A DNA stretch of 64,000 bases, taken from assembly GCA_964016885.1 (NCBI GenBank), contig OZ024743.1, positions 348,130,001 to 348,194,000 on the forward strand. Direction: 5' to 3'. The number at the start of each line of letters is the position of its first letter. Position 1 is the first letter of the stretch. The notes under the pieces are model-generated. The model did not search any database, had not been told where the DNA came from, and saw only the letters and a program-made list of their open reading frames with translations. Source of the DNA: Eledone cirrhosa. Taxonomy: Eukaryota. Positions 4,699 to 63,680 of this stretch are shown here, one piece after another. The translations under genes were made by a program, and so were the position numbers.

Positions 4699-4735
<37 letters not shown>

Positions 4736-4736
4736 C

Positions 4737-4852
<116 letters not shown>

Positions 4853-4857
4853 TTATA

Positions 4858-4902
<45 letters not shown>

Positions 4903-5099
4903 GACTTACCATCCCATTCCTTCTAACTAGCCTCTGTGTCACGTGATTGATTCTTTAGAATCGGCCATTTGACTTGAAGCAGTGAGAATTTCGGTACATA
5001 GAATTCAGTCCTCGCAAGCTGTTCGATCTACCGAATTATTATTATTTTTATATGAGCCGCCAGTGTCCGCGCATTGCCTGGAGACTTAACTGAGAATAG

Positions 5100-5181
5100 A
5101 CTTCCTGATGACGCAATGAATTCTCGACAGTTGAATTACGTAACTGTCTTTATCCCATTGCAGAAACTAATTAGTTGGAGT
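5100..5181 (+). ncRNA. Type I hammerhead ribozyme (family B, copy 1)
   Basis: acttc-CTGATGA(5105)-c-gcaatg...cattgc-a-GAAA-ctaattag-TT-ggagt. Stem III is palindromic, and the predicted GUU cleavage is after 5176. Confidence 0.75.
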
Positions 5182-5659
5182 GAAAATTTAAGTAAGAAAA
5201 AAATTTTTTTTAAATTTTTTTTTTAAAAAAATATTTTTTTATTTTACGTCCTTTATATTATTGTTCTGCATTCTCCTGCATTGAACCACCTAGGTACTAT
5301 GACATAACCTGTGTATTTGTTGGCATGGGCGTGCATCTGTGCGCTTATGTTAGTTGATATATTAAATTATCTATATTTATCTCCAAATCACTGATTTGTC
5401 GAGCAAACTTGTCAAAACCACTTCTAAAAAAATTTTTTTTGGGGTGTTAGTAGGCGTCAGTCATCTTACCATCCCATTCCTTCTAACTAGCCTCTGTGTC
5501 ACGTGATTGATTCTTTAGAATCGGCCATTTGACTTGAAGCAGTGAGAATTTCGGTACATAGAATTCAGTCCTCGCAAGCTGTTCGATCTACCGAATTATT
5601 ATTATTTTTATATGAGCCGCCAGTGTCCGCGCATTGCCTGGAGACTTAACTGAGAATAG

Positions 5660-5741
5660 ACTTCCTGATGACGCAATGAATTCTCGACAGTTGAATTACG
5701 TAACTGTCTTTATCCCATTGCAGAAACTAATTAGTTGGAGT
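5660..5741 (+). ncRNA. Type I hammerhead ribozyme (family B, copy 2)
   Basis: Same motif 560 bp downstream. Predicted cleavage after 5736. Confidence 0.75.
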
Positions 5742-5929
5742 GAAAATTTAAGTAAGGAAAAAAATTTTTTTTAAATTTTTTTTTTAAAAAATATTTTTTT
5801 ATTTTACGTCCTTTATATTATTGTTCTGCATTCTCCTGCATTGAACCACCTAGGTACTATGACATAACCTGTGTATTTGTTGGCATGGGCGTGCATCTGT
5901 GCGCTTATGTTAGTTGATATATTAAATTA

Positions 5930-5962
<33 letters not shown>

Positions 5963-5964
5963 CG

Positions 5965-6016
5965 TTTCTGGTGCGTGTGTTTCTTATTGGCAACATGACC
6001 CTCCCAAAGTATAACA

Positions 6017-6369: not shown

Positions 6370-6975
6370 TTATCTACTCCAACTATACGGTTGAGGCCAT
6401 GCTTGGGCACCGACCTTGTTGCTATTCGTTCTATCTCCAGCATATGTTGGCTGGCAATTGGTGTAAGAGGAAGTTCGTTGCTGCTGCCCTTCGTTTACCT
6501 TCATAGCATGCTGTGGGCTCATCCTGGATCCTGGATAGCAGAGTGTCACGATATTTCTTGAAAACATCCATGTCCACAACATGCAGATCTCTGAAATTTA
6601 TTTGCAGCTTGTTGAAGATTTGTGGGCTATTACAATATCTCTCGTTATTATAGATGTGAAAGATGGGACGTTTGACAGCTGGACCAACCCCCGAAAAGGG
6701 GGTTGGTCCAGTTGTCAATGCCAAGTTTGGTGCTAGTCTCTCCAGGATTTTCGATATGTATATCACTGCGTATTTCTCACTTCTTCCTTCCAATGAGTAG
6801 TTTCAGTCCTTTTAGCTTCCTGTAGCTCATCTCCTTCATTACGACCACAGTTGGGAGCAGTAGTCCAGTCGGCTTAGAACAAATTTCTTTCATAGTATCA
6901 GCATGATATCTCGCTTCTTGTCCGCACAGTCCTCAATATCCAGCTAGCGAGTCGTCTGCACATTGTCGCAACCTT
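6370..6975 (-). mobile_element. CR1-superfamily LINE 3' fragment, decayed
   Basis: The minus-strand peptides EKYAVIYISKILERLAPN and DLHVVDMDVFKKYRDTLLSRIQDEP match the element at 53165-54660. Confidence 0.8.
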
Positions 6976-18601: not shown

Positions 18602-18788
18602 ATAATTGTTTCTACTTTAGGCACAAGGCCAGCAATTACCCAGTGCATTACTGGTACTTTATTTTATCGACCCTGTAAGGATGAAAGGCAAAGTCAACCT
18701 CGGCGGGATTTGAACTCAGATCGTAAAGGGACGTAACTAAGCTGGAAAGCATGGCGTCCGACCCTCTACCGATACTGCCAATCCACCG
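18602..18788 (-). mobile_element. tRNA-derived SINE, full length, inserted tail-to-tail into the previous copy
   Basis: Reverse complement of the same family. taccaataat is repeated on both sides, which looks like a TSD. Confidence 0.85.
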
Positions 18789-21249: not shown

Positions 21250-21442
21250 GGGTGGTGAATTGGCAATATCGGTAGAGCGCCAGACACCTGGCTTCACAGC
21301 ATGGAGTTACGGCGCTTTACGTTCTGAGTTCAAATCCCGCCGATATTAACTTTACCTTTCATCCTTACGAGGTTGATAAAATAAAGTACCAGTAATGCAC
21401 TGGGTATTTGCTGGCCTTGTGCCAAAAGTTGAAACAATTATT
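21250..21442 (+). mobile_element. tRNA-derived SINE, full length
   Basis: A and B boxes plus the same body and gaaacaattatt tail as the 18.5-kb copies. Confidence 0.85.
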
Positions 21443-23151: not shown

Positions 23152-23918
23152 GTATATATATATAAAGTTGTAGTTCCTGTCTGTTTGTTTGTTTATGAAC
23201 TCCTCCTATAGTTTTAGAGATAGACCCCCATAACCACATAAATTCTGAAACTACATTGCCCAGGGTATTGGATAAGTATATTTCATGTTAATCAATGTTT
23301 TCCTCGGGGGGCACTAACTCTAGTTGAAAACCCCGCTGAAACTTTTTCCCTTCAATTTATATGAAATTTAAACCATATATAAATTCCACGATATGATCCC
23401 CATTCACAAAATTTCATCAACTTTCAATAATACTAAGACACCGTAATGGGGGTTAAGCCCCCTATTAGGGTTACCCGGGGCGCACAAAACCCCGCTGGAA
23501 ATTGTTTCATTTCAATTGATATGAAATTTAAACGATAGGTAAATGATAAGATATGATGCCTATTCACAAAAGTTTTGAATTGCTATTTTGAACAACATTA
23601 TTTACAAGAAACAAACTAAGAATCAGATTTAATAATATAATTTGGATTTGATATATTACAAAAAATAAGTTTTCCTATTTTTCATGCATTACATGTTATA
23701 TTGAGTAATATTTGTTTCTACTTTTGGCACAAGGCCAGCAATTACCCAGTGCATTACTGGTACTTTATTTCATCGACCCCGTTGGGATGAAAGGCAAAGT
23801 TAACCTCGCGGGAAATATTGAAATGTAGAGTTTTTCTCCATAAATGATATCACTGATTTAAAATCAATCATCCTTTTCTTACGAAAAAAAGAACAAAAAG
23901 GCACGGGTAATTCGGCTA

Positions 23919-25843: not shown

Positions 25844-26032
25844 AATAATTGTTTCTACTTTAGGCACAAGGCCAGCAATTATCCAGTGCATTACTGGTAC
25901 TTTATTTTATCGACCCCGTAAGGATGAAAGGCAAAGTTAACCTCGGCGGAATTTGAACTCAGACCATAAAGGGACGTAACTATGCTGGAAAGCATGGCGT
26001 CCGACGCTCTACCGATACTGCCAATCCACCGC
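25844..26032 (-). mobile_element. tRNA-derived SINE, full length
   Basis: Near-identical to 18602-18788. Confidence 0.85.
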
Positions 26033-26449: not shown

Positions 26450-28230
26450 AGAAATAGCGGGCAAATAGCCTTACTGCATAGACTAAAAAAGCTCATCATT
26501 TTTGTAAGGCAATCTTTCTAGAAATGGTGTCTCAATAAAATACTGGTTAGCGGTAACCTTAAGATGCAAGAGAAGGAAAACCCTAAGAAGAACTCATTTT
26601 CAATGATGTATGAAAAAACGATTAACAAAAACTTGCCATGAGATTGGAAAAAATAATGGTAACCTCTCGGAAGGTACTATACGTGAAGCTGTTAGGCACA
26701 GTAAGTTGCATGTGGACCAAACAATACATTCTTCGGATCCTGAGGTACAGACTTCCAACGGTCGTCATCAAGCAACTGTATCTTTACGCCAATGATAAAT
26801 ACCTAGAAACAATGGAATTAAAAATAGGTTTTCAGGGTGAATCTTTCTCATCACTGCATTTTGTAATGGCCATGATACTCACATCCTTTGTTCTGCCTGA
26901 GACTGGGATTGTGAACAATCTCGAGAGAGGTTGTTTGTCAAGTTGCTCATGGATGATCAGAGCTTATTTGTTAAGAATAAGCTGTTCATTACTGATTTGA
27001 GTACATTAGAATGGAATTTGGAGTTAGAAAATATACAGTCTTTTTCTATGAGATGAGAAAGAAGGATCTACAGCAAGGGAATAACACTCCCAAATGGAAA
27101 GAACATATCCGAACCTGAAGAACCTGGACACAAATATCTTGGTGAGGGTGAGGAAAACGTTGATGGTAGGATGAAAAGAATATTACTTCAAAGAATAGGA
27201 ATACTTGTAAAGACAAAACTAAATGCCCGAAATATGATGACAGCTATAAATTGCTGGGTTGTAGCAGTAGTGAGATACAGATGGGCGGTCATCAATTGGA
27301 CCAAGCAGGAACTGGAAGACATTGACAGAAAGACTAGCCCAATGAAGTGGGAAATATTGTAAGGGAGAAAATATTATGAGGCTGTATGAGTCAAGAGAGA
27401 ATGGTGGGAAAAGTTTGATTGGAATAGAAGAATGCGTCGCTGCAGAGAGGATAGGCCTAGACATTTACGTTGCAAGTAACAAAGAGATACTACTGGAATA
27501 CCTTGCCAACACAAATACGTTAGTGAAAGGAGTTGAGAAGGAAAAGCACAAATTGCGAGCGTCAATGCATTTGCATGGCCAATTCGTAAATTCGTAGATG
27601 AGACTAGACATCTGAAAACGGAAAAATCATGGGATTGGTTGAGAAGGGGAAATATGAAGAGAAGGACGGAGGCTTTGCTTTTAGCTGCCCTGGATCAAGC
27701 GCTAAGCACCAACTCAATGAAGAAATTACATGGACAAAGCGATAGCGACCAATACCACGGCAAATAGGGCTTGCACATGCATTGGCTACTTTGTTAGAGA
27801 TATGGATTCAAAGTGGAAAAAAAATGGTATCACCATGAACCGGATAGTGTAATTTGAAATGACAAAGCACAAATAAGGTGGTATCTGACTGGCAAACAAA
27901 CAGAGGTATTGAAGACCGGAAACCTGACACTGTTGTGATTGAAAAAGAGGAGAGCCAGTGGAGGATAATTGACGTCGCAATCTCTGGGTATGAGAGAACT
28001 AAAGGGAAAGAATGGGGAAAGATAAGGAATGAGTTGAGATTTGAAACAGCTCGGTTGTGGAACGTGTCAGCAAAGGCGATTCCCGTTATTATTAGTACAC
28101 TTTGATCTATACCAAAGAAATTAGAGAAGAATTTGGAAGAACGTGGAATACCACCTAACATTTCCTTCTTGTAAAAAGCAGTTCTTCTTGGTTCAGCCCT
28201 TATAGGGCGAAAGATACTGGTTATCTGAGG
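26450..28230 (+). mobile_element. R4/Dong-like non-LTR retrotransposon (RT plus restriction-like endonuclease), decayed
   Basis: Motifs in order: GFQGESFSSL, LMDD, KYLG, RLYESRENGGKSL, LHGQF, RKPDTVV..IIDVA, KAVLLGSA. Multiple stops and frameshifts. Confidence 0.85.
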
Positions 28231-30693: not shown

Positions 30694-30851
30694 TGTTTCA
30701 GAAGATCCCGTTCAGGGTGAAAGCAGCGATTCTTTGCTTAAACTTTAATCTGTTATTTTAATAAATATATGCTCTACGGTTCTTATATATTTGATATATA
30801 TTTATCCTTATCGAGCCCTCTTTGGATTTTAATCTTCAAATGTATTATTAT

Positions 30852-31690: not shown

Positions 31691-31980
31691 GCTTTCTGTA
31701 TGTGATGATTATGAAGATTAATGGAGAATATAAAGCAAGGTCATTTAACTATAAAGCCTAAGACTACGCATGCACCCACACATGCACAATTATGCTTATG
31801 TCAGTGTTTTAGTTTTCGAAGCATGTTAAAATATGTTAAAGCTATTAATTGTATATAGTTGCGGTTTTTGAAAAGAAATATTTTTCCGAGCTATAGAGCA
31901 GTACTTTTAGTTATTTATCTTAAAAAAGATAAATATCTATATATAAATATATATACATACATATATAGATATATATATAC

Positions 31981-32089
<109 letters not shown>

Positions 32090-32152
32090 CATATATATAT
32101 ATACATATATATATATACATATACATATATACATATATATATATACATATAC

Positions 32153-32189
<37 letters not shown>

Positions 32190-32241
32190 CATACATATAT
32201 ATATATATTTACATATATATATATACATTTATATATACATT

Positions 32242-32273
<32 letters not shown>

Positions 32274-32274
32274 C

Positions 32275-32343
<69 letters not shown>

Positions 32344-32422
32344 CATATATATATATACATATATATATATACATATATATATATACATATACATATATAC
32401 ATATATATATATATACATATAC

Positions 32423-32479
<57 letters not shown>

Positions 32480-33478
32480 CATATATATATATATATACAT
32501 ATATATATAGTTATACTTGGGGAGGGTCATATTTGCGTAATATTGCCAGAATAAATAACAGAACACACTCACTGTTTGGTTGGTTTTCGCTTCTCGCTGT
32601 CTTTTATTATATCTGCGATCTAACTTACTCGGTCCTCAATGTTGCCATTGACTGACCGGCGGTCAAAAATAATACAGATACAATATAGACACAAACACAT
32701 ATATATATATATAGTTTACATAATTTACATAAATCTTTCGTTGCACATCTGCAACATCGTCAGTGGTGTTATATTCATTGTTCCTCCTGTTGTGTTGTAT
32801 GTCTACGCCATTTTTTTTTGTTCAGTCTGTCTATATATTTATTTATTTATTTGCTTGTTTGTTTATCTTATTTTATTTGTCTTCTTTGCGCATGCGTTTG
32901 CGTGTGTGTATAGTGTTATGTGTGATGTGTGACTAGTGTGTATAGTGTTGTGTCTGCTGGGTGACTAGTGTGTGTTTATGTGCTTGTTGTTATTGTGCTT
33001 GTGTATGTATTTATTTATCTTATTTTATTTAATTTTATTTACTTATTTATACTTCTCTTAGGTCAGTGTTGTTTGTTTAGGTGTTGTTGTTGTTCCACTC
33101 ATTCTTTCTGTTTAGCTTTGGTCTTCTAATTTCTATTTCACTGGCCTCTCTGATTTGCCTATCTGCTGGGTCATTCCTATGTTTAGATATTATTCTAATT
33201 TCTATGTTGTCTATGTTACCGTCATGTTGTTGTCTAGCATGTTCGTATAGTACTGACCCGTTTTTTCGTCCTTTTAGTTCCCCCCAGTGTTGGTCTATCC
33301 TTTCACCTATGCTACGAGCTGTCTCACCTATGTATGTTGTTGTCATGTTTCTGCAAGTACCCTCTGTACATCTTATGCTATAGACTACGTTTCTAGTTTT
33401 ACAGTTTATCCGGGGTTCACCTTACATATGATACAATTCCTATTGGTACAGTGGGTTTTCTTAAAAGGGTAGGTTTTA

Positions 33479-34147
33479 GAAAAGTATAAGACCCTCATAG
33501 AACTGGACATGAAAGGAATCTGCCCACTATACAGGAGCAAATCATGGAATAGCTTAGATAGGGCTAGACATAAGATAGGGAAGGCCACATCATGGTACGA
33601 CAACCAGAGATATCAGAGTGTCATGTTTGTGGACGCCACCCCTGGAGGGAAATTAGCTAACCAGTGTAGAAAGGCCCTGAGAAAGACCCACTTAAAAATA
33701 AAGGTGGTAGAAAAGCCAGGAACCACCATAAAATCCCTGATCAGCAAAACCTACCCTTTTAAGAAAACCCACTGTACCAATAGGAAGTGTATCATATGTA
33801 AGGTGAACCCCCGGATAAACTGTAAAACTAGAAACGTAGTCTATAGCATAAGATGTACAGAGGGTACTTGCAGAAACATGACAACAACATACATAGGTGA
33901 GACAGCTCGTAGAATAGGTGAAAGGATAGACCAACACTGGGGGGAACTAAAAGGACGAAAAAACGGGTCAGTACTATACGAACATGCTAGACAACAACAT
34001 GACGGTAACATAGACAACATAGAAATTAGAATAATATCTAAACATAGGAATGACCCAGCAGATAGGCAAATCAGAGAGGCCAGTGAAATAGAAATTAGAA
34101 GACCAAAGCTAAACAGAAAGAATGAGTGGAACAACAACAACACCTAA
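33479..34147 (+). CDS. PLE ORF C-terminus: RT thumb remnant, Cys-rich linker and GIY-YIG endonuclease (5'-truncated)
   Basis: Open frame from 33479. Motifs: CTNRKCIIC, NVVYSIRC...YIGETAR.IGER..QH, RQIREA, LN. Confidence 0.9.
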   Translation, partial: EKYKTLIELDMKGICPLYRSKSWNSLDRARHKIGKATSWYDNQRYQSVMFVDATPGGKLANQCRKALRKTHLKIKVVEKPGTTIKSLISKTYPFKKTHCTNRKCIICKVNPRINCKTRNVVYSIRCTEGTCRNMTTTYIGETARRIGERIDQHWGELKGRKNGSVLYEHARQQHDGNIDNIEIRIISKHRNDPADRQIREASEIEIRRPKLNRKNEWNNNNT

Positions 34148-34455
34148 ACAAACAACACTGACCTAAGAGAAGTATAAATAAGTAAATAAAATTAAATAAA
34201 ATAAGATAAATAAATACATACACAAGCACAATAACAACAAGCACATAAACACACGCTAGTCACCCAGCAGACACAACACTATACACACTAGTCACACATC
34301 ACACATAACACTATACACACACGCAAACGCATGCGCAAAGAAGACAAATAAAATAAGATAAACAAACAAGCAAATAAATAAATAAATATATAGACAGACT
34401 TAACAAAAAAAAAATGGCGTAGACATACAACACAACAGGAGGAACAATGAATATA

Positions 34456-34498
34456 ACACCACTGACGATGTTGCAGATGTGCAACGAAAGATTTATGT
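34456..34498 (+). ncRNA. Minimal HHR in the PLE-1 pLTR; mirror copy at 32728-32765 on the minus strand
   Basis: ca-CTGACGA-t-gttgca-gatg-tgcaac-GAAA-gatt-TA-tg. Stem I is weak. Confidence 0.7.
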
Positions 34499-34793
34499 AA
34501 ATTATGTAAACTATATATATATATATGTGTTTGTGTCTATATTGTATCTGTATTATTTTTGACCGCCGGTCAGTCAATGGCAACATTGAGGACCGAGTAA
34601 GTTAGATCGCAGATATAATAAAAGACAGCGAGAAGCGAAAACCAACCAAACAGTGAGTGTGTTCTGTTATTAATTCTGGCAATATTACGCAAATATGACC
34701 CTCCCCAAGTATAACAATATCTGTTTCGACACACGATTTCATATAAAAAACCTCGCAAAACTAATTCATCGCCGCCATATATATATATACATT

Positions 34794-34879
<86 letters not shown>

Positions 34880-34930
34880 CATATATATATATTTTATATA
34901 TATATATATACATATATATATATACACATA

Positions 34931-34962
<32 letters not shown>

Positions 34963-35013
34963 CATATATATATATACATATATATATATACATATATATA
35001 TATATACATATAC

Positions 35014-35044
<31 letters not shown>

Positions 35045-35045
35045 C

Positions 35046-35123
<78 letters not shown>

Positions 35124-35124
35124 T

Positions 35125-35289
<165 letters not shown>

Positions 35290-35290
35290 T

Positions 35291-38200
35291 ATATTTATTA
35301 AAATAACAGATTAAAGTTTAAGCAAAGAATCGCTGCTTTCACCCTTAACGGGATCTTCTGAAACTAACAAAGTCAATCTGTAAACGCAGAACTGGATATT
35401 TCAAAAAACGTTGCAACCGGAGGAAGACAGGAAGACGATACTTTGGTTCGTGGAAACGTTCGCTGGCAAAGAACGGGAAAAAACGAATAATACGTCATTA
35501 ATAGGAGCGGTGAAAAACAATTACGTGCAAAGACAGAACCACGTTTATGGTATAAAAGAGGTCGTAGACTAATGTTCTCTTAGGTGGTGCATAGAGACGT
35601 TATCTGGCAATGAACGAAAAAACGAAGATAATAAGTCATATGTGGAGCGTGGAGAACAATAGCACGCAAAGACAAAACCACGTAAACGGTATAGCAGAAG
35701 TCGTAGACTAAAATACTAACTAGGAGACCAAATGAATCTCCGCTACAGAGTTAAGAACAAAGTAAATAAATACAATACAGAAGTAATAGAAATAAATAAA
35801 TACATACACGCAAACAGATACGTACATACACAAGCATCCGCAAAACCTTACCATAGGTATACGAAACCACGCACATATAAATATGTGTGTGTATGTATGC
35901 TTGTGTACAAAGAAATAAATAATTATATAAACGTATATAAGTAAATAAATACGTATATAACAAGCGCACGCACATACCTGCGAATAAATACACGAAAGTT
36001 CGGAGACGTAAGTCAACTAAAACAAGAAGTACACATATACACACACCCACCATACGTACGAACCTGCATACTCACGCAGACGCAAAACTCCCGTATACAC
36101 ATATCTAAAGCCTAAATACCAGAATATGTAAAAATTCCCCAACGCGGGCGGTGGTTTGTACCGTGACGATGGTCTTTTGACCATGACTAAGTGCGGACCT
36201 CGTCCTTGCGACAGGTTCAGAAAAGAACTCACAGCCTTCTTTAAAGGCTTCAACCTCTCTATACAGGTTGAGGACAATCTCTCGGTCGTTAATTACCTCG
36301 ACGTTAACCTCAATTTATTGAATGGGTTGTATTACCCGTATAGAAAGCCGAATGATACGCTTATTACATAAGTAAGCATTCCAACCATCCTGCCAGCATA
36401 ACCAAGAACCTGGTAAAAAACGTTTCGTTGAGGCTTTCCCGTCTTTCCACCAACGAGCGCATTTTCAACGACCATTCCACTTATTACAATGAAGCTCTTG
36501 CTCGAAGTGGATTTGTCGATAAAGTAGCTTATACAGAGTACGAAAATAGACCTAGAAGAAATAGATCCCGTCGCATTTGTTGGTTTAACCCACCATATAA
36601 TATGGAGGTGGCCACACCATTAGCTAAGATCTTTCTTTCCCTTATTACGAAGCATTTTCCCCCTACACATAAATATAGTAAAATTTTTAATAGAAATACT
36701 ATTAAAATGTCTTACTCTACGACTCCTAACCTTGCACATAATATCACAGCTTCAAAGTTAGCTAAACTACCTAGCCGTAGGAACACGTGCAACCCTGTAG
36801 TTAGTACTAACTGTAATTGTAGGAATCGGGCTGATTGCCCCCTATCCGGGAAATGCCTCTCTAGTAACTTTGTCTACAAATGTAAGGTTGTAACACCCAC
36901 GTCCCGTAGGGCCTACATAGGGTTAACCGCCAATAGTTTCAAGCAGTTTCCTTTCGTTACCCTCTAAGAAGGAATATGACGTCACTTTCAGCTTATATCT
37001 GGAGTCTAAAAGACAACCACACCCAATATAAGTTACACTGGGAGATCCTAGCTAGGGCTAGATCGTATTACGGAAATAAAAGACCATGTGACCTCTGCGC
37101 CGCTGAGGCCCTGGAATTATTCTACGCCACAGACCACATCTTAAACAAAAAATCCAAGGCAATTTCGGCTTGTAAACATAAATTGCACAAAACTTTCCTG
37201 TATTACAGCCCCACTTTATACCCCACCGGATAGCACGATCTATACGTGGATATTTTACGTCTTGATGCGGGAGCTAAGTATATGTTTTGTTTATTCCTTT
37301 ACTTATTTGCATAGGTAAGTATATATTACCCGTATGTTTTGTGAAGATTGTATACCTTCTCGTACGTATATTTGACTGTTATGGCGAATAATTTTTACAT
37401 ATTCTGGTATTTAGGCTTTGGCTATGTGTATACGGGAGTTTTGCGTCTGCGTGAGTATGCAGGTTCGTACGTATGGTGGGTGTGTGTATATGTGTACTTC
37501 TTGTTTTAGTTGACTTACGTCTCCGAACTTTCGTGTATTTATTTGTAGGTATGTGTGTGCGCTTGTTATATACGTATTTATTTACTTATATACGTTTATA
37601 TAATTATTTATTTATTTGTACACAAGCATACACACACACACATATTTATATGTGCGTGGTTTCGTATACCTATGGTAAGGTTTTGCGGATGCTTGTGTAT
37701 GTACGTATCTGTTTGCGTGTATGTATTTATTTATTTCTATTACTTCTGTATTGTATTTATTTACTTTGTTCTTAACTCTGTAGCGGAGATTCATTTGGTC
37801 TCCTAGTTAGTATTTTAGTCTACGACTTCTGCTATACCATTTACGTGGTTTTGTCTTTGCGTGCTATTGTTCTCCACGCTCCACATATGACTTATTATCT
37901 TCGTTTTTTCGTTCATTGCCAGAGAACGTCTCTATGCACCACCTAATTGAACATTAGTCTACAACCTCTTTTATACGATAAACGTGGTTCTGTCTTTGCA
38001 CGTAATTGTTTTTCACCGCTCCTATTAATGACATATTATTCATTTTTTCCCGTTCTTTGCCAGCGAACGTTTCCACGAACCAAAGTATCGTCTTCCTGTC
38101 TTCCTCCGGTTGCAACGTTTTTTGAAATATCCAGTTCTGCGTTTACAGATTGACTTTGTTAGTTTCAGAAGATCCCGTTAAGGGTGAAAGCAGCGATTCT

Positions 38201-38318
38201 TTGCTTAAACTTTAATCTGTTATTTTAATAAATATTTGCTCTACGGTTCTTATATATTTGATATATATTTATCCTTATCGAGCCCTCTTTGGATTTTAGT
38301 CTTCAAATTTATTATTAT

Positions 38319-41246: not shown

Positions 41247-41608
<362 letters not shown>

Positions 41609-44691: not shown

Positions 44692-45990
44692 AAGTTCCAC
44701 ATCAACAGTGACATAGACCGCCATTACTTAAACGTAAGCAGGGAGGCAGAGGCCTAACATCAGTCCAGACAACATTTGAATGTCGCATCATATCTCTCCT
44801 ACAACATCTACGAACCTCGAAGCGTAGGAGCCCGTTTCTCTAGCAAGTCTATCTGCATGAAACAGAAAAGATCATGAGAGTTGGGAAGGAACTCCTCGAG
44901 AAATATTCCCTGTGAGATAATCAAAAACTCACACCCAGGGAAGTCGCTCAGCAGTATCGCAGTGAATCCATGGATGAAAAACTGCATGCTTATCAGCAAA
45001 AAATCATGCATGGATTTGTTGCCAGGAAGCTCTAGAGTGAGAGTAATATAGATAAGGAAAGTAGTCTAACTTGGACCAACAACCGCTATATTGGCTCCCA
45101 CTTTGAAGGATACGCTTTTACAATCCAGGAACAAGAGATTAACACGAAATACCTGATTCACAAAAGAGATAGGGATGCAGGCAAAACACCTAGATGTGAT
45201 AACAAGTGCAAACTCGGCAGAACTAACATCGAGGATATCACCCATGTCATCAGCAGCTTTCCAAAGATGTCATCGCGGTACTATCTACCTATGAGGCATG
45301 ATGTAGTGGCTAAAAACACCGTACAATACAGTTCGTAAAATAGATAGCCCCAATAATAAACACATTAAAAGCTACAGCAATGTGGAAGTCATCCATGTAC
45401 ATAATATGAAAGAGTACTGGTGGAATGTTCCAGTAAAAACTCCAATAAAATGCAGGTATAACAGACCAGATATTATGATATCTGACAGGGAGAAGAAAGC
45501 ATGCACAGTAGTGGAAATTAGCTGCCCAGCAGATGCCAATATAATATCAAAGATTAGTGAAAAGGAGAATATTAATGCAGAACTGATGAGAAATCTGCAA
45601 ATACTCCACCCTGATTACACCTTCAGATTTATGCCTCTGATTACTGGGGCATTGGGGTATGTTAGTAACTGCCTCAATACAAATCTGGAGAAGCTAAGCT
45701 TCACAGGAACAGAAAAAACACAAGTTAGGAAATTACAAGTACAATCCATTAATGGAACAGTAACAATTTTGCATCTAATAACTGCATATACACATGTACA
45801 GATACAAAGCATATACACATGCACACATACAACTCAAAACATACATATCCACGCATACAATAACATCCATATCTACACATGCATGATTACATACATATCT
45901 ACCTAGTTGATGTTGTGTAAATTCCAATGAAAGAGTCTTGTGTCTATGTTAGAAACCGACTCTCTCTCTATTGGTTAAACTTTGTGAAAT
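44692..45990 (+). mobile_element. R4/Dong-like non-LTR 3' fragment inserted in (TACA)n
   Basis: LKRKQGGRGL, MHGF, IQEQEI, decayed CCHC, RHD, NRPDIMI...VVEISCP, IT.GALG. (CATA)n lies on both flanks. Confidence 0.85.
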
Positions 45991-51589: not shown

Positions 51590-51644
<55 letters not shown>

Positions 51645-51647
<3 letters not shown>

Positions 51648-52084
51648 CGTAAAATAAGAAAATTATAAAATTAACTTACTTACTAAAATTTCACTCCAAC
51701 TAATTAGTTTCTGAAAGGGAATAAACATACTTTCCGAAGAAACATACGGAGAAGCCTTTCGTCATCAGGGAAGTCTATTCTCAGGTAAGTTTCCAGGCAA
51801 TACGTGGACACTTATACAAAAATAATTCAGTGGATGGAAAAAAGCAAAGCGTGGACTAAATTCCAAGCCATTGAGAAAATCACTGCCTACTGCGTCGGTG
51901 GCAAATTCAAAAGAATCAATCACGTAACATCGAGGTCAATCAGTGAAAAAGTGGTTTGTTAAGAAGACAGCAGCCGGACTGTTACTATAGTAGCAGTTTT
52001 GGCCAATTTTTGCTCGACAAAACAATTTGGAGTTAATTATAAAGAATTAGTATATCGAGTAACATATTACTAGATATACTAATT

Positions 52085-52090
<6 letters not shown>
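51645..52090 (-). mobile_element. Family B diverged copy, differently permuted, with a 19-bp inverted arm
   Basis: Homologous to about 5347-5810, crossing the tandem junction. gatatactaattctttata near 52072-52090 inverts about 52038-52056. Confidence 0.75.
51693..51774 (-). ncRNA. Type I hammerhead ribozyme (family B, copy 3)
   Basis: Minus strand: ttcc-CTGATGA-c-gaaagg...cctttc-a-GAAA-ctaattag-TT-ggag. Confidence 0.8.
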
Positions 52091-52159
<69 letters not shown>

Positions 52160-52535: not shown

Positions 52536-52574
52536 CTTCCCATATATATATATATATATATATGGGGGGGGTAT

Positions 52575-53113
52575 ATAACAAAGACCAATGCGTAAGTTAT
52601 CAGGTGGACCATAACACACCAGAGTACTCCATACTTAAGGTAGTAGACTAGGTAATAGGAAAAGAGTCAGGACCTCGAACAACACACACACATAGAACAA
52701 ACAACCAACCAGTAACATGTAAATAAACAAATAAATAAACAAATAAAAACACACACAGACATCCGGATGTAACACATGCGCAAACTAAGCACACAACACA
52801 CACAAAAACAAGATGGCGTAGCACAGAAAAAAGGAAAGGCACAAAGCAAAGAAAATAATCCCCAGTCACTGAAGAGGTCACAGACTGTGTGACGAAAGAA
52901 CTTTGACAATATATGAACAACCGTCCGGTTATAGAACCAACCAACCGGAAATTTATAAATTCTTAAATTTATAAATTTAATTTATAATAAATTGGAGTGA
53001 AAGCAACTGGTGCGTGTGTTTCTTATTGGCAACATGACCCTCCCAAAGCATAACAATATCGGTTTCAAAATACGTTTTCAGATAAAGAATCTTGCTAAAC
53101 AAATTCAGAAACG
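52575..53113 (+). mobile_element. PLE-1-related pLTR with tail, in (TA)n
   Basis: AC-rich region, HHR, then atgaccctcccaaagcataacaatatc and a tail homologous to 34716-34776. Confidence 0.8.
52865..52907 (+). ncRNA. Minimal HHR in a PLE-1-related pLTR
   Basis: gtca-CTGAAGA-g-gtcaca-gactg-tgtgac-GAAA-gaac-TT-tgac. Confidence 0.8.
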
Positions 53114-53164: not shown

Positions 53165-54660
53165 AGCTCCACTGCCGATGCTCTTACGAAGCTCCTTGGC
53201 TAGCGGTAGAATACCGAGAGAGCTGAAAGAAGGCACAATATGCCCTATCCATAAAGGAAGTTTCAGAGCAGAGGTCAAAATCTACAGACCAGTCTCCCTG
53301 ACATCACATATCAGTAAAGTGATGGAAAGAATCATCAGAAAGAAACTGATCATGTTCCTCGAGGAAAATGACTGCCTGACTAGCACGCAGCATGGCTTTA
53401 GCCCAGGAAGAAACTGCCTTACACAGCTTCTCCATCACTAAGACCGGGTACTGAAACAACTGCTAGACAACGCACATGTGGATGTGATATATCTTGACTT
53501 TGCGAAGGCCTTTCGAAAGGTTGACTATGGAATGATATGTCACAAACTACGCACACGCGGCATAACTGGAAAAGTAGGTGAGAGGCTGCATGACTTCTTA
53601 AAATACAGAAGCTATACAGTTGCAGAAAATGGGGCCCTCTCAAAGGAAACATCAATAACAAGTTGCATGCCTCAAGACACAGTCCTGGGACTACTTTGGT
53701 GGCTCTCGCAGACAGACCCTCTGTATTACATACAACATCCCTCACTATTTATGCTGATGACACTAAGGTAGCACAGGCAATCAAAAATCCCGCTGATACT
53801 GCCCTTTTACAAGATCTAGATGCCATATACAAATGCTGAAGACAACAGCATACAGTTTAATGCTGGACAATTTCAAGCCCTACAATACAAACCTGCAAAC
53901 ACAAATACAGTACAACACGTTATATTGGACCAGGAGGGACCGAAATTCCCGTGTCGAAATCGATACGATACCTGGGCATAGACATGAGCGACGATGCATC
54001 TTTTTCCTCACACATCATGAAAGTGGCGACAATATGCAGACGTCTCTGTTGCTGGATCTTGAGGACTTTCCGAGCAAGAGACCTAGAGACCATGTTGACA
54101 CTAAGGAGGACATTTGTCCTAAGCCGCCTGGACTATTGCTCCCAGCTGTGGTCATCCCATAAGGTCAAATTAACCACGGAGCTTGAAGCAATCCAACTAA
54201 GCTACACCAAGTCGATTGCAACGATGAACGAGATAAGCTACTGGGAGAGGCTAAAAGAACTGAACGTCTACTCCATGGAACGAAGACGGGAGAGATACGC
54301 AGTGATATACATATGGAAATTCATGGAGGGACTAGCACCACACTTTGGCATTGTAGCTGCACCAACCCCCAAACAGGACGTCGGTGTGTGGTGCCAAACA
54401 TCCCGTCTTCCACATCTAGAATAAGGAGCAGATATTGCAAAAGCCTGGGGATCAAGGGCCCTCAACTCTTTAATAAGCTGCCGGGGGATTTGAGAGATAT
54501 GCATGGTGTGGACGTGGATGTTTTCAAGAAACATCTCGACACCCTGCTGTCCAGGATCCCGGATGAGTCCACAGCCCGGCACGAGTGAAACCTAAGATCA
54601 GCAGCAACAACCTCCCTCTTGCACCAGTGGCCAACCAATACGGGCTGGGGATGAAACGTG
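53165..54660 (+). mobile_element. CR1-superfamily LINE, 5'-truncated RT region with stops and frameshifts
   Basis: YRPVSLTSHISKVMER, QHGF, IYLDFAKAF, PQ.TVLG, YADDT, RYLGI, LDYCSQLW, YWERLKEL. Confidence 0.92.
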
Positions 54661-55039: not shown

Positions 55040-55939
55040 AGTGGATTATTATTTTTACCAATAGCAGAGTGAAATGTTCGTCAATGCAAACCTCAGAAGC
55101 GAAATACCTTACATATTTAGGTCTCTAGACAAACAAACATTAAATATTAAGATAGTTAAACGACCATAAAAGCCCTAATTAGTAGAACCTCTCCTTTGGC
55201 AAAATAAACCCTGCACAGATAGGAAATGCGTAGTCTGCAAATTAAGCCCACAAACTAAATGTAAAACTAAAAGCTTAGGATATAGCATAAGATGTACTGA
55301 GGACAGTGTAGGAATAAGAACACAACATAAATAGGGGAAACAGCCCGTAGCATAGGAGAAGGGCTAAATGAACACTGGTGAGAACTGCAACCAGTACTCC
55401 ACCAACAAGCCAAAATAGAACAGGTGCAATATTAGAGAACATGGAGATAAAAATCATATCCACACACAGAAACGACGCAATGCTCCGACAGATTACAGAA
55501 GCGACAAAAATAAATAAACATGAATGGAATGGAAACACAATACAACTAGTGACTAGGGACAAGATAAAGACATACAGACATATACAAGAACCTAACTAAT
55601 AAAACAAACCTGACACACAAACAGAGAACAAGCAACCAACTAACGACAAGTAAATAAACTTATAAATAAATAAACACACACTCCCGGATATGACGCATGC
55701 ACACACAATGGGTCACAATACACAACACACAAAAACAAGATTGTGTAGGACAGAACAAAGGAGACACTCAAAAGAAGAAGTCAATCACTGAGAAGGTGAC
55801 AGAATATGTGACGAATGTCAGTAAATAAACAACCATCCGGTTATTAAACTAGCCAACCGGAAATCTCTATTAAATTAAAGTAAGATACCAACATGTGCGT
55901 GTGTTTCTTTTTGGCAGTATGACCCACATGAAGTATAAC
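55040..55939 (+). mobile_element. Decayed PLE-1-related element (GIY-YIG remnant plus pLTR)
   Basis: NCKTK..YSIRCTE and IKIISTHRND..LRQITEA. The pLTR ends aagtataac|(TA)n, and an eroded HHR lies near 55785-55820. Confidence 0.8.
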
Positions 55940-55952
55940 TATATATATATAT

Positions 55953-60251: not shown

Positions 60252-61578
60252 TAAATTATTAAAAATGTAAAGGAAAGTTGAGTAGTAAAAACGGTAATGT
60301 TATGGATTAAATACATTAAAGTTTTAGGTATTTTATGAGGCTTAGGGTCAAATTTTATTTACATCATTTTGGTTTAAAGATTGTACAAGGTCAACTGGTT
60401 GTTCCAATACTTTTATCTAGAGAGGCGCATGTGTTCGGCGATGTTTTATAGGAGTCGTAACGTCGTCAAATTCTGAGGTTGTTATGAAACTCAGAAAATG
60501 AGTATAGTCTTAGTGGCTAAGGTCCGCGTCATCACTATTAGATGGTACTGTTTCATGTATGGCGAGACGTTAAGAGTTTTATAGCATTCTGTACCTTCTA
60601 AAAATATTTTCCTACGAAGTATATTAAAAATCTCACTAATTAACACCTCGCAAAATGTAACACCCACTGTATATACCAGAAATTATTCTGGAGCAATTCA
60701 ATTGACCTTATTCTCTTTAAACTTTGGTTTTACTCAGCTTTATAAAATCACAATATACAAATATGACTTTTGGACATATAAACATGTATCGAAAAAAGAT
60801 TGAGTTGACAATATAAAGTGTTCAGCAGAAGCGTTTCAGCTACTAGATTATAATTGTGATTAGTGTAGCAGTATTCATGGAATCCATCCCCGCTTAAGCG
60901 ATAGAATGCACAGCATTTGTCTGTAAATAGTATACGTAGCTATAAGTACTGGTGAACGTATGTAAATAAATTCAGTATTCTGAGTTTTATAGTATTTTGT
61001 GTGTGTTGGCGGTGAAAATAAATAAATTTGTGTTTCACTATGAGGTCTCATTGTATCATTCTATTTAATTTAGAAGACCTACATAAGTTATACAGTTATG
61101 AAAATAAGTAAAATATGTGCGTCAATACATCGCCTCCCAGGACAGACCGCAGTCCTATCGCCAGGTTGTACATCATCAGATGAGACTGTAATACCTAAGG
61201 CCCGATCGGCTCTTATTTTTAACCCACGTGAAGTGCGATGCGGCAAGACTGTCTTTGTTGTGTATAGCCATGTCGCAGTATTTGGTGGGTTTATTTGTGC
61301 CAGTCCTCAATCTGGTACTATTCTCAGACCCACAAAGACTAGGTCTTTTTAAAGGCGGACTTTACTCATCTCGTAAATGCTTCATCACTGGGCTGTGAGA
61401 GAGATATTGGGAGCTAACAGTGTTACTCATTGCTTCATCTTCCTTACTAGTTTACCGCTCTTGGTCTCAGTTGCTTATTCGCTCGAAAGGAGCCTGATTA
61501 TCATATCTAGTGGCCGCATCAATATCCGCTCTCTAGCAGAGGGATCGGTGGACATTCTGTTCTCCTGGTTTCTCTATA

Positions 61579-61662
61579 ATAATTGTTTCTATTTTTAGGC
61601 ACAAGGCCAGCAATTACCAATACATTACCGGTACTTTATTTTATCGACCCCGTAAGGATGAA
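61579..61662 (-). mobile_element. Truncated SINE 3' part
   Basis: Same family as 18602-18788. Confidence 0.8.
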
Positions 61663-63308: not shown

Positions 63309-63310
63309 CA

Positions 63311-63428
63311 TAATTGTTTCTACTTTTGACACAAGGCCAGCAATTACACAGTACATTACTGGTACTTTATTTTATCGACCCCGTAAGAATGAAAGGCAAA
63401 GTTAACCTCGGCGCGATTTGAACTCAGA
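63311..63428 (-). mobile_element. Truncated SINE
   Basis: Same family. Ends just past the B box. Confidence 0.8.
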
Positions 63429-63522
63429 AACATAATGCTGACTGAATACTCACATATTTTTAAAATAAGTTTTTGCCGTTCCTTTCACTTATCTTCTATT
63501 TATCTTCTATTTCTAAATATCC

Positions 63523-63556
63523 CTTCTGATGACGGACGAGAATCCGAAATATTAAG
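63523..63556 (+). ncRNA. Minimal type I HHR
   Basis: ctt-CTGATGA-c-gga-cgagaa-tcc-GAAA-ta-TT-aag. Stem III is a loopless palindrome (ATAT). Confidence 0.55.
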
Positions 63557-63680
63557 ACTATTTTCCTCTTGCTATGTTAAGCAATAGACTAATATAATTC
63601 TTCAGCGTACTGTGTCGTTTGTTATTTCGGTTTAGCTTTTAAACACAACACACATACACACACACACGGACGCACACACA

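Follow-up and report, generated by a model that had tools for sequence, protein, structure and literature searches.

A hammerhead-bearing tandem repeat of Eledone cirrhosa with a PLE-type insertion footprint: a candidate non-LTR retrozyme family

How might a repeat that encodes no protein, and in which each unit carries a hammerhead ribozyme motif, have spread through a genome, and from which RNA template? The question is raised by a locus in Eledone cirrhosa, which we analysed within a window of 64,000 nucleotides (contig OZ024743.1 of assembly GCA_964016885.1, positions 348,130,001 to 348,194,000; coordinates below count from the first letter of this window). The retrozyme class is already described (PMC7229834; bioRxiv 10.64898/2026.07.22.740005) and is not new; in the portions of these two sources available, the mobilising enzyme and the circular template of animal retrozymes are still argued from co-occurrence and sequence likeness. 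An initial annotation had proposed a retrozyme or non-autonomous Penelope-like element (PLE) family here. This proves to be the right class, with an insertion footprint that supports mobilisation by a PLE directly, and on the sequence comparisons below we regard a PLE-mobilised non-autonomous family as very probable.

The locus is a plus-strand tandem array (4906-5936; 1.84 units, period 560), which TRF missed because its longest period is 500. At an offset of 560, 467 of 472 ungapped positions are identical (4905-5376 against 5465-5936), and the five mismatches between the copies, all in the A/T tract 5197-5225, amount to two single-base indels. Copy 1 (4906-5465, +) is 560 bp long and contains no ORF; copy 2 (5466-5936, +, 471 bp) stops at an internal end site that we call E2 and gives way to (TA)n. 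The core CUGAUGA lies at 5105 and 5665 and GAAA at 5163 and 5723, and GUU ends at 5176 and 5736. The period, the identity and the presence of all three motifs in both copies bear out the annotated head-to-tail arrangement with a hammerhead in each copy, and the interval between the predicted cuts after 5176 and 5736 is exactly 560 nt, as had been claimed, by arithmetic on the motif positions. The predicted monomer between them (5177-5736, +; GC 35%) might be released and circularised. Its description as ORF-less also stands, the longest ATG-started ORF of the circularised unit measuring 36 aa on the plus and 27 aa on the minus strand; an ORF for RT plus GIY-YIG endonuclease was found in neither the unit nor the tandem.

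A third, diverged copy lies on the minus strand (51642-52087, 446 bp), with a BLAST identity of 68% over 451 columns (E 2e-32) and 314 of 406 aligned columns identical. From a start resembling 5354 it passes through E2, the junction of units and the hammerhead motif, and stops at a second internal end site, E1. The annotation had stated that a diverged copy reads across the unit junction, and copy 3 does pass from 5354-like sequence through 5465/5466.

Beyond the window, word sampling detected part of the unit in 20 of 24 listed public sequencing runs. Contigs of four runs (X1, X12, X6 and X11) were compared with one unit; their kind is unrecorded, so they are uninformative on RNA. Matching contigs numbered 1085 in X1, in four identity bands, 38 in X12, 8 in X6 and 1 in X11, counts that are not equal to copy numbers; the X6 contigs stand at depth 2-6, and the X6 and X11 matches may be carry-over DNA, so that presence in several species is not claimed. 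Judged from these matches, at least one genome contains the unit in great abundance. The joint from 5465 to 4906 is present in at least two X1 and at least two X12 contigs, and a variant joint with another spacer in at least one contig each of X12 and X6. A tandem or closed organisation can thus be taken as a property of the family, in line with the earlier proposal, as copy 3 and contigs of X1, X12 and X6 all span junctions. Six RNA-recorded runs each contained at most 0.04 of the sampled unit words, a figure that expresses word share alone and is no evidence of expression. Searches of viral contigs (two patterns) and of prokaryotic genomes gave 0 matches. The sole matching metagenome contig, which shared a 20-nt conserved motif, was rejected as a chance match; the shared motif lies inside an open bacterial-type coding stretch without a hammerhead core.

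The motif in each copy can be folded as a type I hammerhead. When the core is constrained to stay single-stranded, copies 1 and 3 adopt the same fold, which in copy 1 occupies 5084-5193 (+; predicted cut after U5176). Stem I has a distal part (5084-5089 with 5188-5193) and a proximal part (5100-5104 with 5177-5181); the core lies at 5105-5111 and GAAA at 5163-5166; and stem II (5113-5118 with 5156-5161) has a C5112/A5162 mismatch at its base and carries a distal hairpin (5126-5148). The second hammerhead (5644-5753, +; predicted cut after U5736) is identical in sequence to the first, and that of copy 3 (51678-51790, -) has its core at 51768, its predicted cut after 51698 and a distal hairpin closed by cUUCGg, so that a complete core and stems are found in 3 of 3 window copies. 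Copies 1 and 3 share distal stem I, internal loop 1, proximal stem I, stem II and internal loop 2, and in both stem III consists of 3 bp with the loop AAUU. Between them, compensatory pairs occur twice in stem II and once in distal stem I, while the distal hairpin differs in sequence and is identical in shape; stem pairs were listed by coordinate with a script, and MAFFT shifted the core by one column. Variants in the contigs point the same way as these pairs: 5103 T>C, the majority letter in X1 and X12, changes a stem I wobble to C-G, and 5128 C>T together with 5146 G>A, dominant in X6, swaps C-G for U-A.

A strict type I descriptor, with thresholds chosen after the motif had been seen, matched twice in the window and in 0 of 30 shuffles, copy 3 passing at a looser setting only. 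Rfam returned nothing at gathering score across the window, and for 4880-5960 only five chance-level matches (snoRNA/sRNA). The minus strand of 4906-5936 contains no CUGANGA core. Close to the hammerhead there are GTAAG motifs that resemble splice donors; they are accounted for by distal stem I, of which they form the 3' strand.

Two further contacts are predicted. Internal loops 1 and 2 could form a pseudoknot (5092-5097 with 5120-5125, +; 6 bp, and 5 bp in copy 3), of a kind frequent in hammerheads according to the available part of PMC3088659; the complementarity occurs in copies 1 and 3 without compensatory change, which leaves it a candidate. Stem III is a 12-nt perfect palindrome (5165-5176, +) with a predicted partner at 5725-5736, an arrangement that would give a double hammerhead, and dimeric hammerheads pair through stem III (PMC4209133, in part). 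The two palindromes do pair in the minimum-energy fold of the 1.84-mer, with an ensemble probability of about 0.2, and an A14-U17 pairing is also possible in the stem III duplex. In this 1.84-mer fold the core is sequestered by 5036-5050 and the probability of stem I is near zero; the active fold lies +12.0 kcal/mol above the predicted minimum as a double hammerhead and +12.7 kcal/mol as two single ones. The cut-site triplet here is GUU, the fastest triplets cited in the available part of PMC3138052 are GUC and GUA, and PMC1636495 gives no data on GUU.

Folding of the whole unit gave a mixed picture. The copy 1 monomer pairs with itself at z -2.96, with one of 100 shuffles equally good, and copy 3 at z -0.79, no better than shuffles. 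Among family variants, of which 39 of 90 rows were used, 13 predicted pairs are broken where 17.9 would be expected (P 0.057). A 15-bp hairpin with many G-U pairs is predicted just upstream of E2 (5320-5353, +), and among six variants listed for it, four turn G-U into Watson-Crick pairs and two break a pair. The A/T homopolymer tract 5190-5247 folds as a long hairpin and is mostly missing in copy 3; copies 1 and 2 differ nowhere else, and the tract may exaggerate the z-score of folding.

The way in which the copies end bears directly on their mobilisation. The array is flanked by (TA)n on the left (4721-4899, the presumed target, from TRF and sequence) and on the right (5932-5960), and copy 3 by (TA)n at its 3' end (51593-51641) and its 5' end (52088-52159; both by TRF). 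(TA)n is accordingly found at 4 of 4 window junctions, and also in at least two X12 contigs; long (TA)n makes up 7% of the window. Both insertions lie inside (TA)n, where a target-site duplication, longer than 4 bp in non-LTR retrozymes when present, is indistinguishable. Copy ends recur at two internal sites. E1 (5248-5258, +), some 80 nt past the predicted cut, receives the direct 3' end of copy 3 (near unit position 5255) and matches an inverted stub at copy 1, these being its n=2 observations, both in the window and one of them an 11-bp stub. E2 (5372-5380, +), some 200 nt past the predicted cut, is where copy 2 ends (5936, unit position 5376) and where the inverted arm of copy 3 ends, and at least two X12 contigs enter the microsatellite at 5372 and 5380. 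The earlier suggestion that dispersed copies are circularly permuted needs correction, in that permutation is not free: the six 3' ends listed fall at these two internal sites.

Each insertion also begins with an inverted piece. At the array this is a stub (4895-4905, -) that is the exact reverse complement of 5248-5258 in E1 and has its sole match in the unit there at lengths 6-11. Neither the TA tract nor the direct copy accounts for about five of its bases, and the chance of the stub 5-mer at a given site is about 0.002, with five TA-like sites in the unit, of which E1 and E2 are two. Copy 3 begins with an inverted repeat in which 23 of 24 positions pair (arms 52038-52061 and 52068-52091); the inverted arm stops at E2, where (TA)n takes over. 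A 5' inverted, 5'-truncated piece is therefore present in 2 of 2 insertions, as a 24-bp arm and a short 11-bp stub, and the two sites are used reciprocally, the copy 1-2 insertion ending at E2 with its inverted piece at E1 and the copy 3 insertion the reverse. We rejected the idea that E1 marks one element split by a microsatellite, as no homology extends beyond the 3' TA tract of copy 3 (score 26, shuffles 29.8).

Together with the 5'-truncated partial tandem at 4906-5936, these features resemble published PLE inserts, for which the available part of PMC8557442 describes partial tandems inserted into (TA)n, with 5' inversion and a tail at one of the two ends. An Anolis PLE nicks and extends both strands in vitro and uses two internal start sites (PMC11167929, in part). 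Read in this light, the unit carries the two-ended insertion pattern of PLEs. Its E1 and E2 lie about 120 nt apart against the usual PLE tail of 30-40 bp, the corresponding values for PLEs in the window being about 60 and 22 nt. Microhomology, or pairing with the nicked target, could alone choose E1 and E2.

From this footprint and the hammerhead we build a model to which we give about as much credence as doubt, that of a non-LTR retrozyme whose tandem transcript would be cut, closed into a circle and copied into (TA)n by PLE enzymes. A tandem locus such as 4906-5936 would be transcribed from the plus strand. Contact between the palindromic stems III would join its two hammerheads, which would then cleave after 5176 and 5736, probably aided by protein, and a host ligase would close the monomer; RtcB closes retrozyme monomers in vitro, and coral, mussel and axolotl repeats of like design yield circles (PMC7229834, in part). 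A PLE endonuclease would then nick both strands of a (TA)n tract, each nick priming reverse transcription at an internal UA-rich site, E1 or E2, so that a direct copy would arise with a short inverted piece at its 5' end. If copying ran on past a full turn of the circle, it would produce partial tandems that regenerate the exact unit. Within this scheme we think it probable that the hammerhead cuts in vivo; whether the circle is the template is a question on which we are evenly divided.

The copies themselves narrow the choice of template. All long copies cross the cut site, so the template should be either circular or a multimer left uncut; from E1 or E2, a linear monomer already cut would offer only 80-200 nt. 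One possible alternative, which we do not favour, keeps the same PLE-mobilised family and supposes that its template is an uncut multimeric transcript, the hammerhead cutting rarely or only trimming and no circle being formed. The intact cut site of the long copies is explained equally well by a linear uncut template, and the active fold is 12 kcal/mol uphill. Published cases lean in the same direction, since in the Anolis PLE mutation of the hammerhead left insertion normal and the substrate was mainly uncut RNA (PMC11167929, in part), and in Xenopus one of nine dimers was cut in vitro and eight were not (bioRxiv 10.64898/2026.07.22.740005, in part). A linear template should, however, shorten with each 5' truncation, so an exact junction across subfamilies some 25-30% apart would need either long master arrays or a circle, and this conservation favours the circle. 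Against the uncut template also stand the compensatory changes, which maintain a full hammerhead fold.

A quite improbable reading takes the unit as the mere pLTR of an autonomous PLE, with 4906-5376 and 5377-5936 as two 5'-truncated copies in partial tandem. PLE inserts are usually 5'-truncated partial tandems (PMC8557442, in part), the hammerhead resembles Hydra-clade PLE motifs, and the contigs are short enough that an ORF-bearing member could be hidden. The 5376/5377 joint should then be private to this locus, yet copy 3 spans it, as do diverged X1, X12 and X6 contigs; among the contigs listed, diverged ones cross 5376/5377 (records 8, 17 and 25) and the cut site (records 5, 21 and 22). 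Taken together, diverged copies leave no part of the circle unspanned, copy 3 being the only one to cross the A/T tract, and the share of matching X1 contigs that continue into unlike sequence is 0. Such junction-spanning diverged contigs argue against two truncated pLTRs at a private junction, and a family with many variants that cross the junction argues against both a local duplication and a simple leftover PLE end.

A satellite or local duplication that retains a relic hammerhead and owes its spread to a LINE or to events at the DNA level is very improbable: near-identity of copies 1 and 2 is what a recent local duplication would give and LINE-like fragments are present in the window, but the copies are dispersed over separate (TA)n tracts with recurring internal ends, 5' inversions and no poly(A) tails, and the compensatory changes in the hammerhead speak against relic status. 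The fragments, which we take to be decayed and LINE-ORF-like, lie at 6431-6802 (-), 53442-54588 (+), 26626-27362 (+) and 45036-45906 (+); Pfam recognised no family in the three tested.

If the family is PLE-mobilised, which PLE might have served it? The window contains remnants of two kinds, assigned to clades by motifs and one homologue search, with Pfam matching 0 of 6 ORF fragments. A Neptune-like 3' remnant at 32510-34775 forms an inverted pair in (TA)n, with GIY-YIG ORFs at 33473-34147 (+) and 33077-33421 (-) and a minimal hammerhead-like motif in each arm, at 32763 (-) and 34462 (+). Its 33473-34144 segment has a CX4CxxC linker followed by the GIY-YIG motif, as in Neptune/Nematis, and the one named relative of ORF 33473 (2 matches) is an Octopus vulgaris protein at 57%; this relative and the microsatellite-rich composition suit an octopod host, a weak indication given that PLEs pass between hosts. 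One end is short and the other about 60 nt longer (32510 versus 34775), and the extra bases read as a peptide start common to the remnant at 53033. Long AT-rich 14-mer microsatellite blocks (31929-32700 and 34570-35300) flank the inverted pair. Further Neptune-like 3' remnants at 52570-53113 and 55150-55940 end in (TA)n, the former with a minimal hammerhead at 52869, which also has U at the cut, and the latter with a decayed GIY-YIG frame. Directly downstream of the tandem, the same TA tract contains a 50-bp PLE end (5961-6012) that is 98% like 53007-53051; it ends short, carries a short 5' stub that corresponds in inverse orientation to the long end at 53113, and is probably an independent insertion.

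The second kind is a Hydra-like remnant at 35300-38255 with an inverted 5' copy, its ends 22 nt apart. Its 36356-36964 segment shows the CxCX5C linker of the Hydra clade. Near its 3' end is a hammerhead-like motif (38166) with the core CAGAAGA rather than CUGANGA, a core that recurs in short copies at 30695-30759 and 41412-41475; motifs of this type have U at the cut and a basal U-U mismatch in stem II. The motif at 38166 is absent from the free fold. The Neptune-like and Hydra-like remnants share the short-end/long-end pattern, and in this they match the footprint of the unit.

Sequence homology gave no direct tie. Compared with six window regions that bear PLE ends or hammerheads, the unit had no significant homology to any (0 of 6; highest z 2.0), and none with the Hydra remnant; among Xenopus families, 24 of 57 have pLTR homology to known elements (bioRxiv 10.64898/2026.07.22.740005, in part). 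Near 52990, a Neptune-like pLTR matches the cut-site flank over 11 nt, which is not significant, and three short motifs of the unit matched no pLTR in the supplement of PMC8557442. Ribozyme detail offers a lead. By eye, the available part of File S2 of that paper has a GUU site in 10 of 25 Hydra-clade families and a stem II base mismatch in 15 of 25, and Chara PLE-X1 has a C-A mismatch at the base of stem II, as here. A Hydra-clade PLE may on this basis be the likeliest helper, with a Neptune-like PLE as the alternative; the Hydra link is a lead only, because File S2 covers Hydra and Chlamys only and the Neptune-like motif at 52869 also has U. The most specific version, in which a pseudoknotted long-armed hammerhead yields a 560-nt circle that a Hydra-clade PLE primes at two fixed sites, one per nicked TA strand, strikes us as rather unlikely in its entirety.

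How the unit sits among known systems can be judged feature by feature, from the parts of the cited sources available. Like metazoan non-LTR retrozymes (PMC7229834; bioRxiv 10.64898/2026.07.22.740005) it is built of ORF-less units in tandem, with one type I hammerhead per unit, and it has a low GC content (0.35, under 50%), no LTR features seen and PLEs in the same genome. Its palindromic stem III, suggestive of dimer cleavage, and its stem II base mismatch recall axolotl retrozyme motifs. Its 560 nt fall outside the 150-450 bp range of PMC7229834 and inside the 51-972 bp of the bioRxiv study. Unlike the non-LTR retrozymes described there, the unit bears a long second hairpin on stem II, and its copies, set in (TA)n, show 5' inversions and stop at two recurring sites. 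At the DNA level, a predicted hammerhead in each unit, tandem arrangement, non-coding sequence and multiple copies together fit a non-LTR retrozyme.

Among PLE-related systems, Hydra-clade PLEs (PMC8557442), which according to File S1 are present in Octopus bimaculoides, share with the unit a (TA)n target, a hammerhead near the 3' end, GUU and the stem II base mismatch; in contrast to them the unit has no RT-GIY-YIG ORF, and the Hydra hammerheads listed have a short loop 2. The Anolis Poseidon PLE PAc (PMC11167929) likewise has two internal 3' ends, an AT-rich target and use of both strands, but is autonomous, with a 30-40 nt tail and a hammerhead dispensable for insertion in vitro. MRC1-type elements of Chlamys (PMC8557442) are also non-coding PLE passengers with head-to-tail insertions; they differ in belonging to green algae and in having 3' sequence in common with an autonomous family, of which none was found for the unit. 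With the minimal PLE hammerheads of PMC4209133 the motif shares an extra base after position 9, G10.1-C11.1, a long stem II and a palindromic stem III, whereas its defined distal stem I and loop 1, 3-bp stem III and extra base on both sides of stem II set it apart. Unlike a plant LTR retrozyme, with a type III hammerhead in its LTRs and a 4-bp target duplication, the unit has a type I motif open at stem I; unlike a viroid-like replicon, with a ribozyme in both polarities and no DNA form, it lacks the core on the minus strand and is genomic DNA. By these features it is neither an autonomous PLE nor a plant LTR retrozyme nor a viroid-like replicon.

In the literature searched, which left most subscription journals outside its scope, we found no description of this family or of any cephalopod retrozyme, and the available text of the O. 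vulgaris repeat annotation (PMC13282606) does not mention hammerheads. The family may already be filed as an unclassified repeat, Repbase and Dfam lying outside the comparison. The combination of a PLE footprint with two exact priming sites makes mobilisation directly testable, by offering purified PLE protein a linear, an uncut or a circular template. Should a circle prove to be primed by a Hydra-clade PLE, a retrozyme circle would for the first time be tied directly to a named PLE enzyme, and the family would be, within the literature searched, the first of its kind in a cephalopod.

Two minor features lie near the far end of the window. At 63526-63560 there is an isolated hammerhead-like core of the minimal type, whose short stem II is GGA/TCC; it is a single copy in the window. 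Close by, at 63310-63430, is a member of a short repeat family, SINE-like by size and 90-93% identical, with other members at 18602-18720, 21322-21441, 23708-23808, 25845-25963 and 61575-61662.
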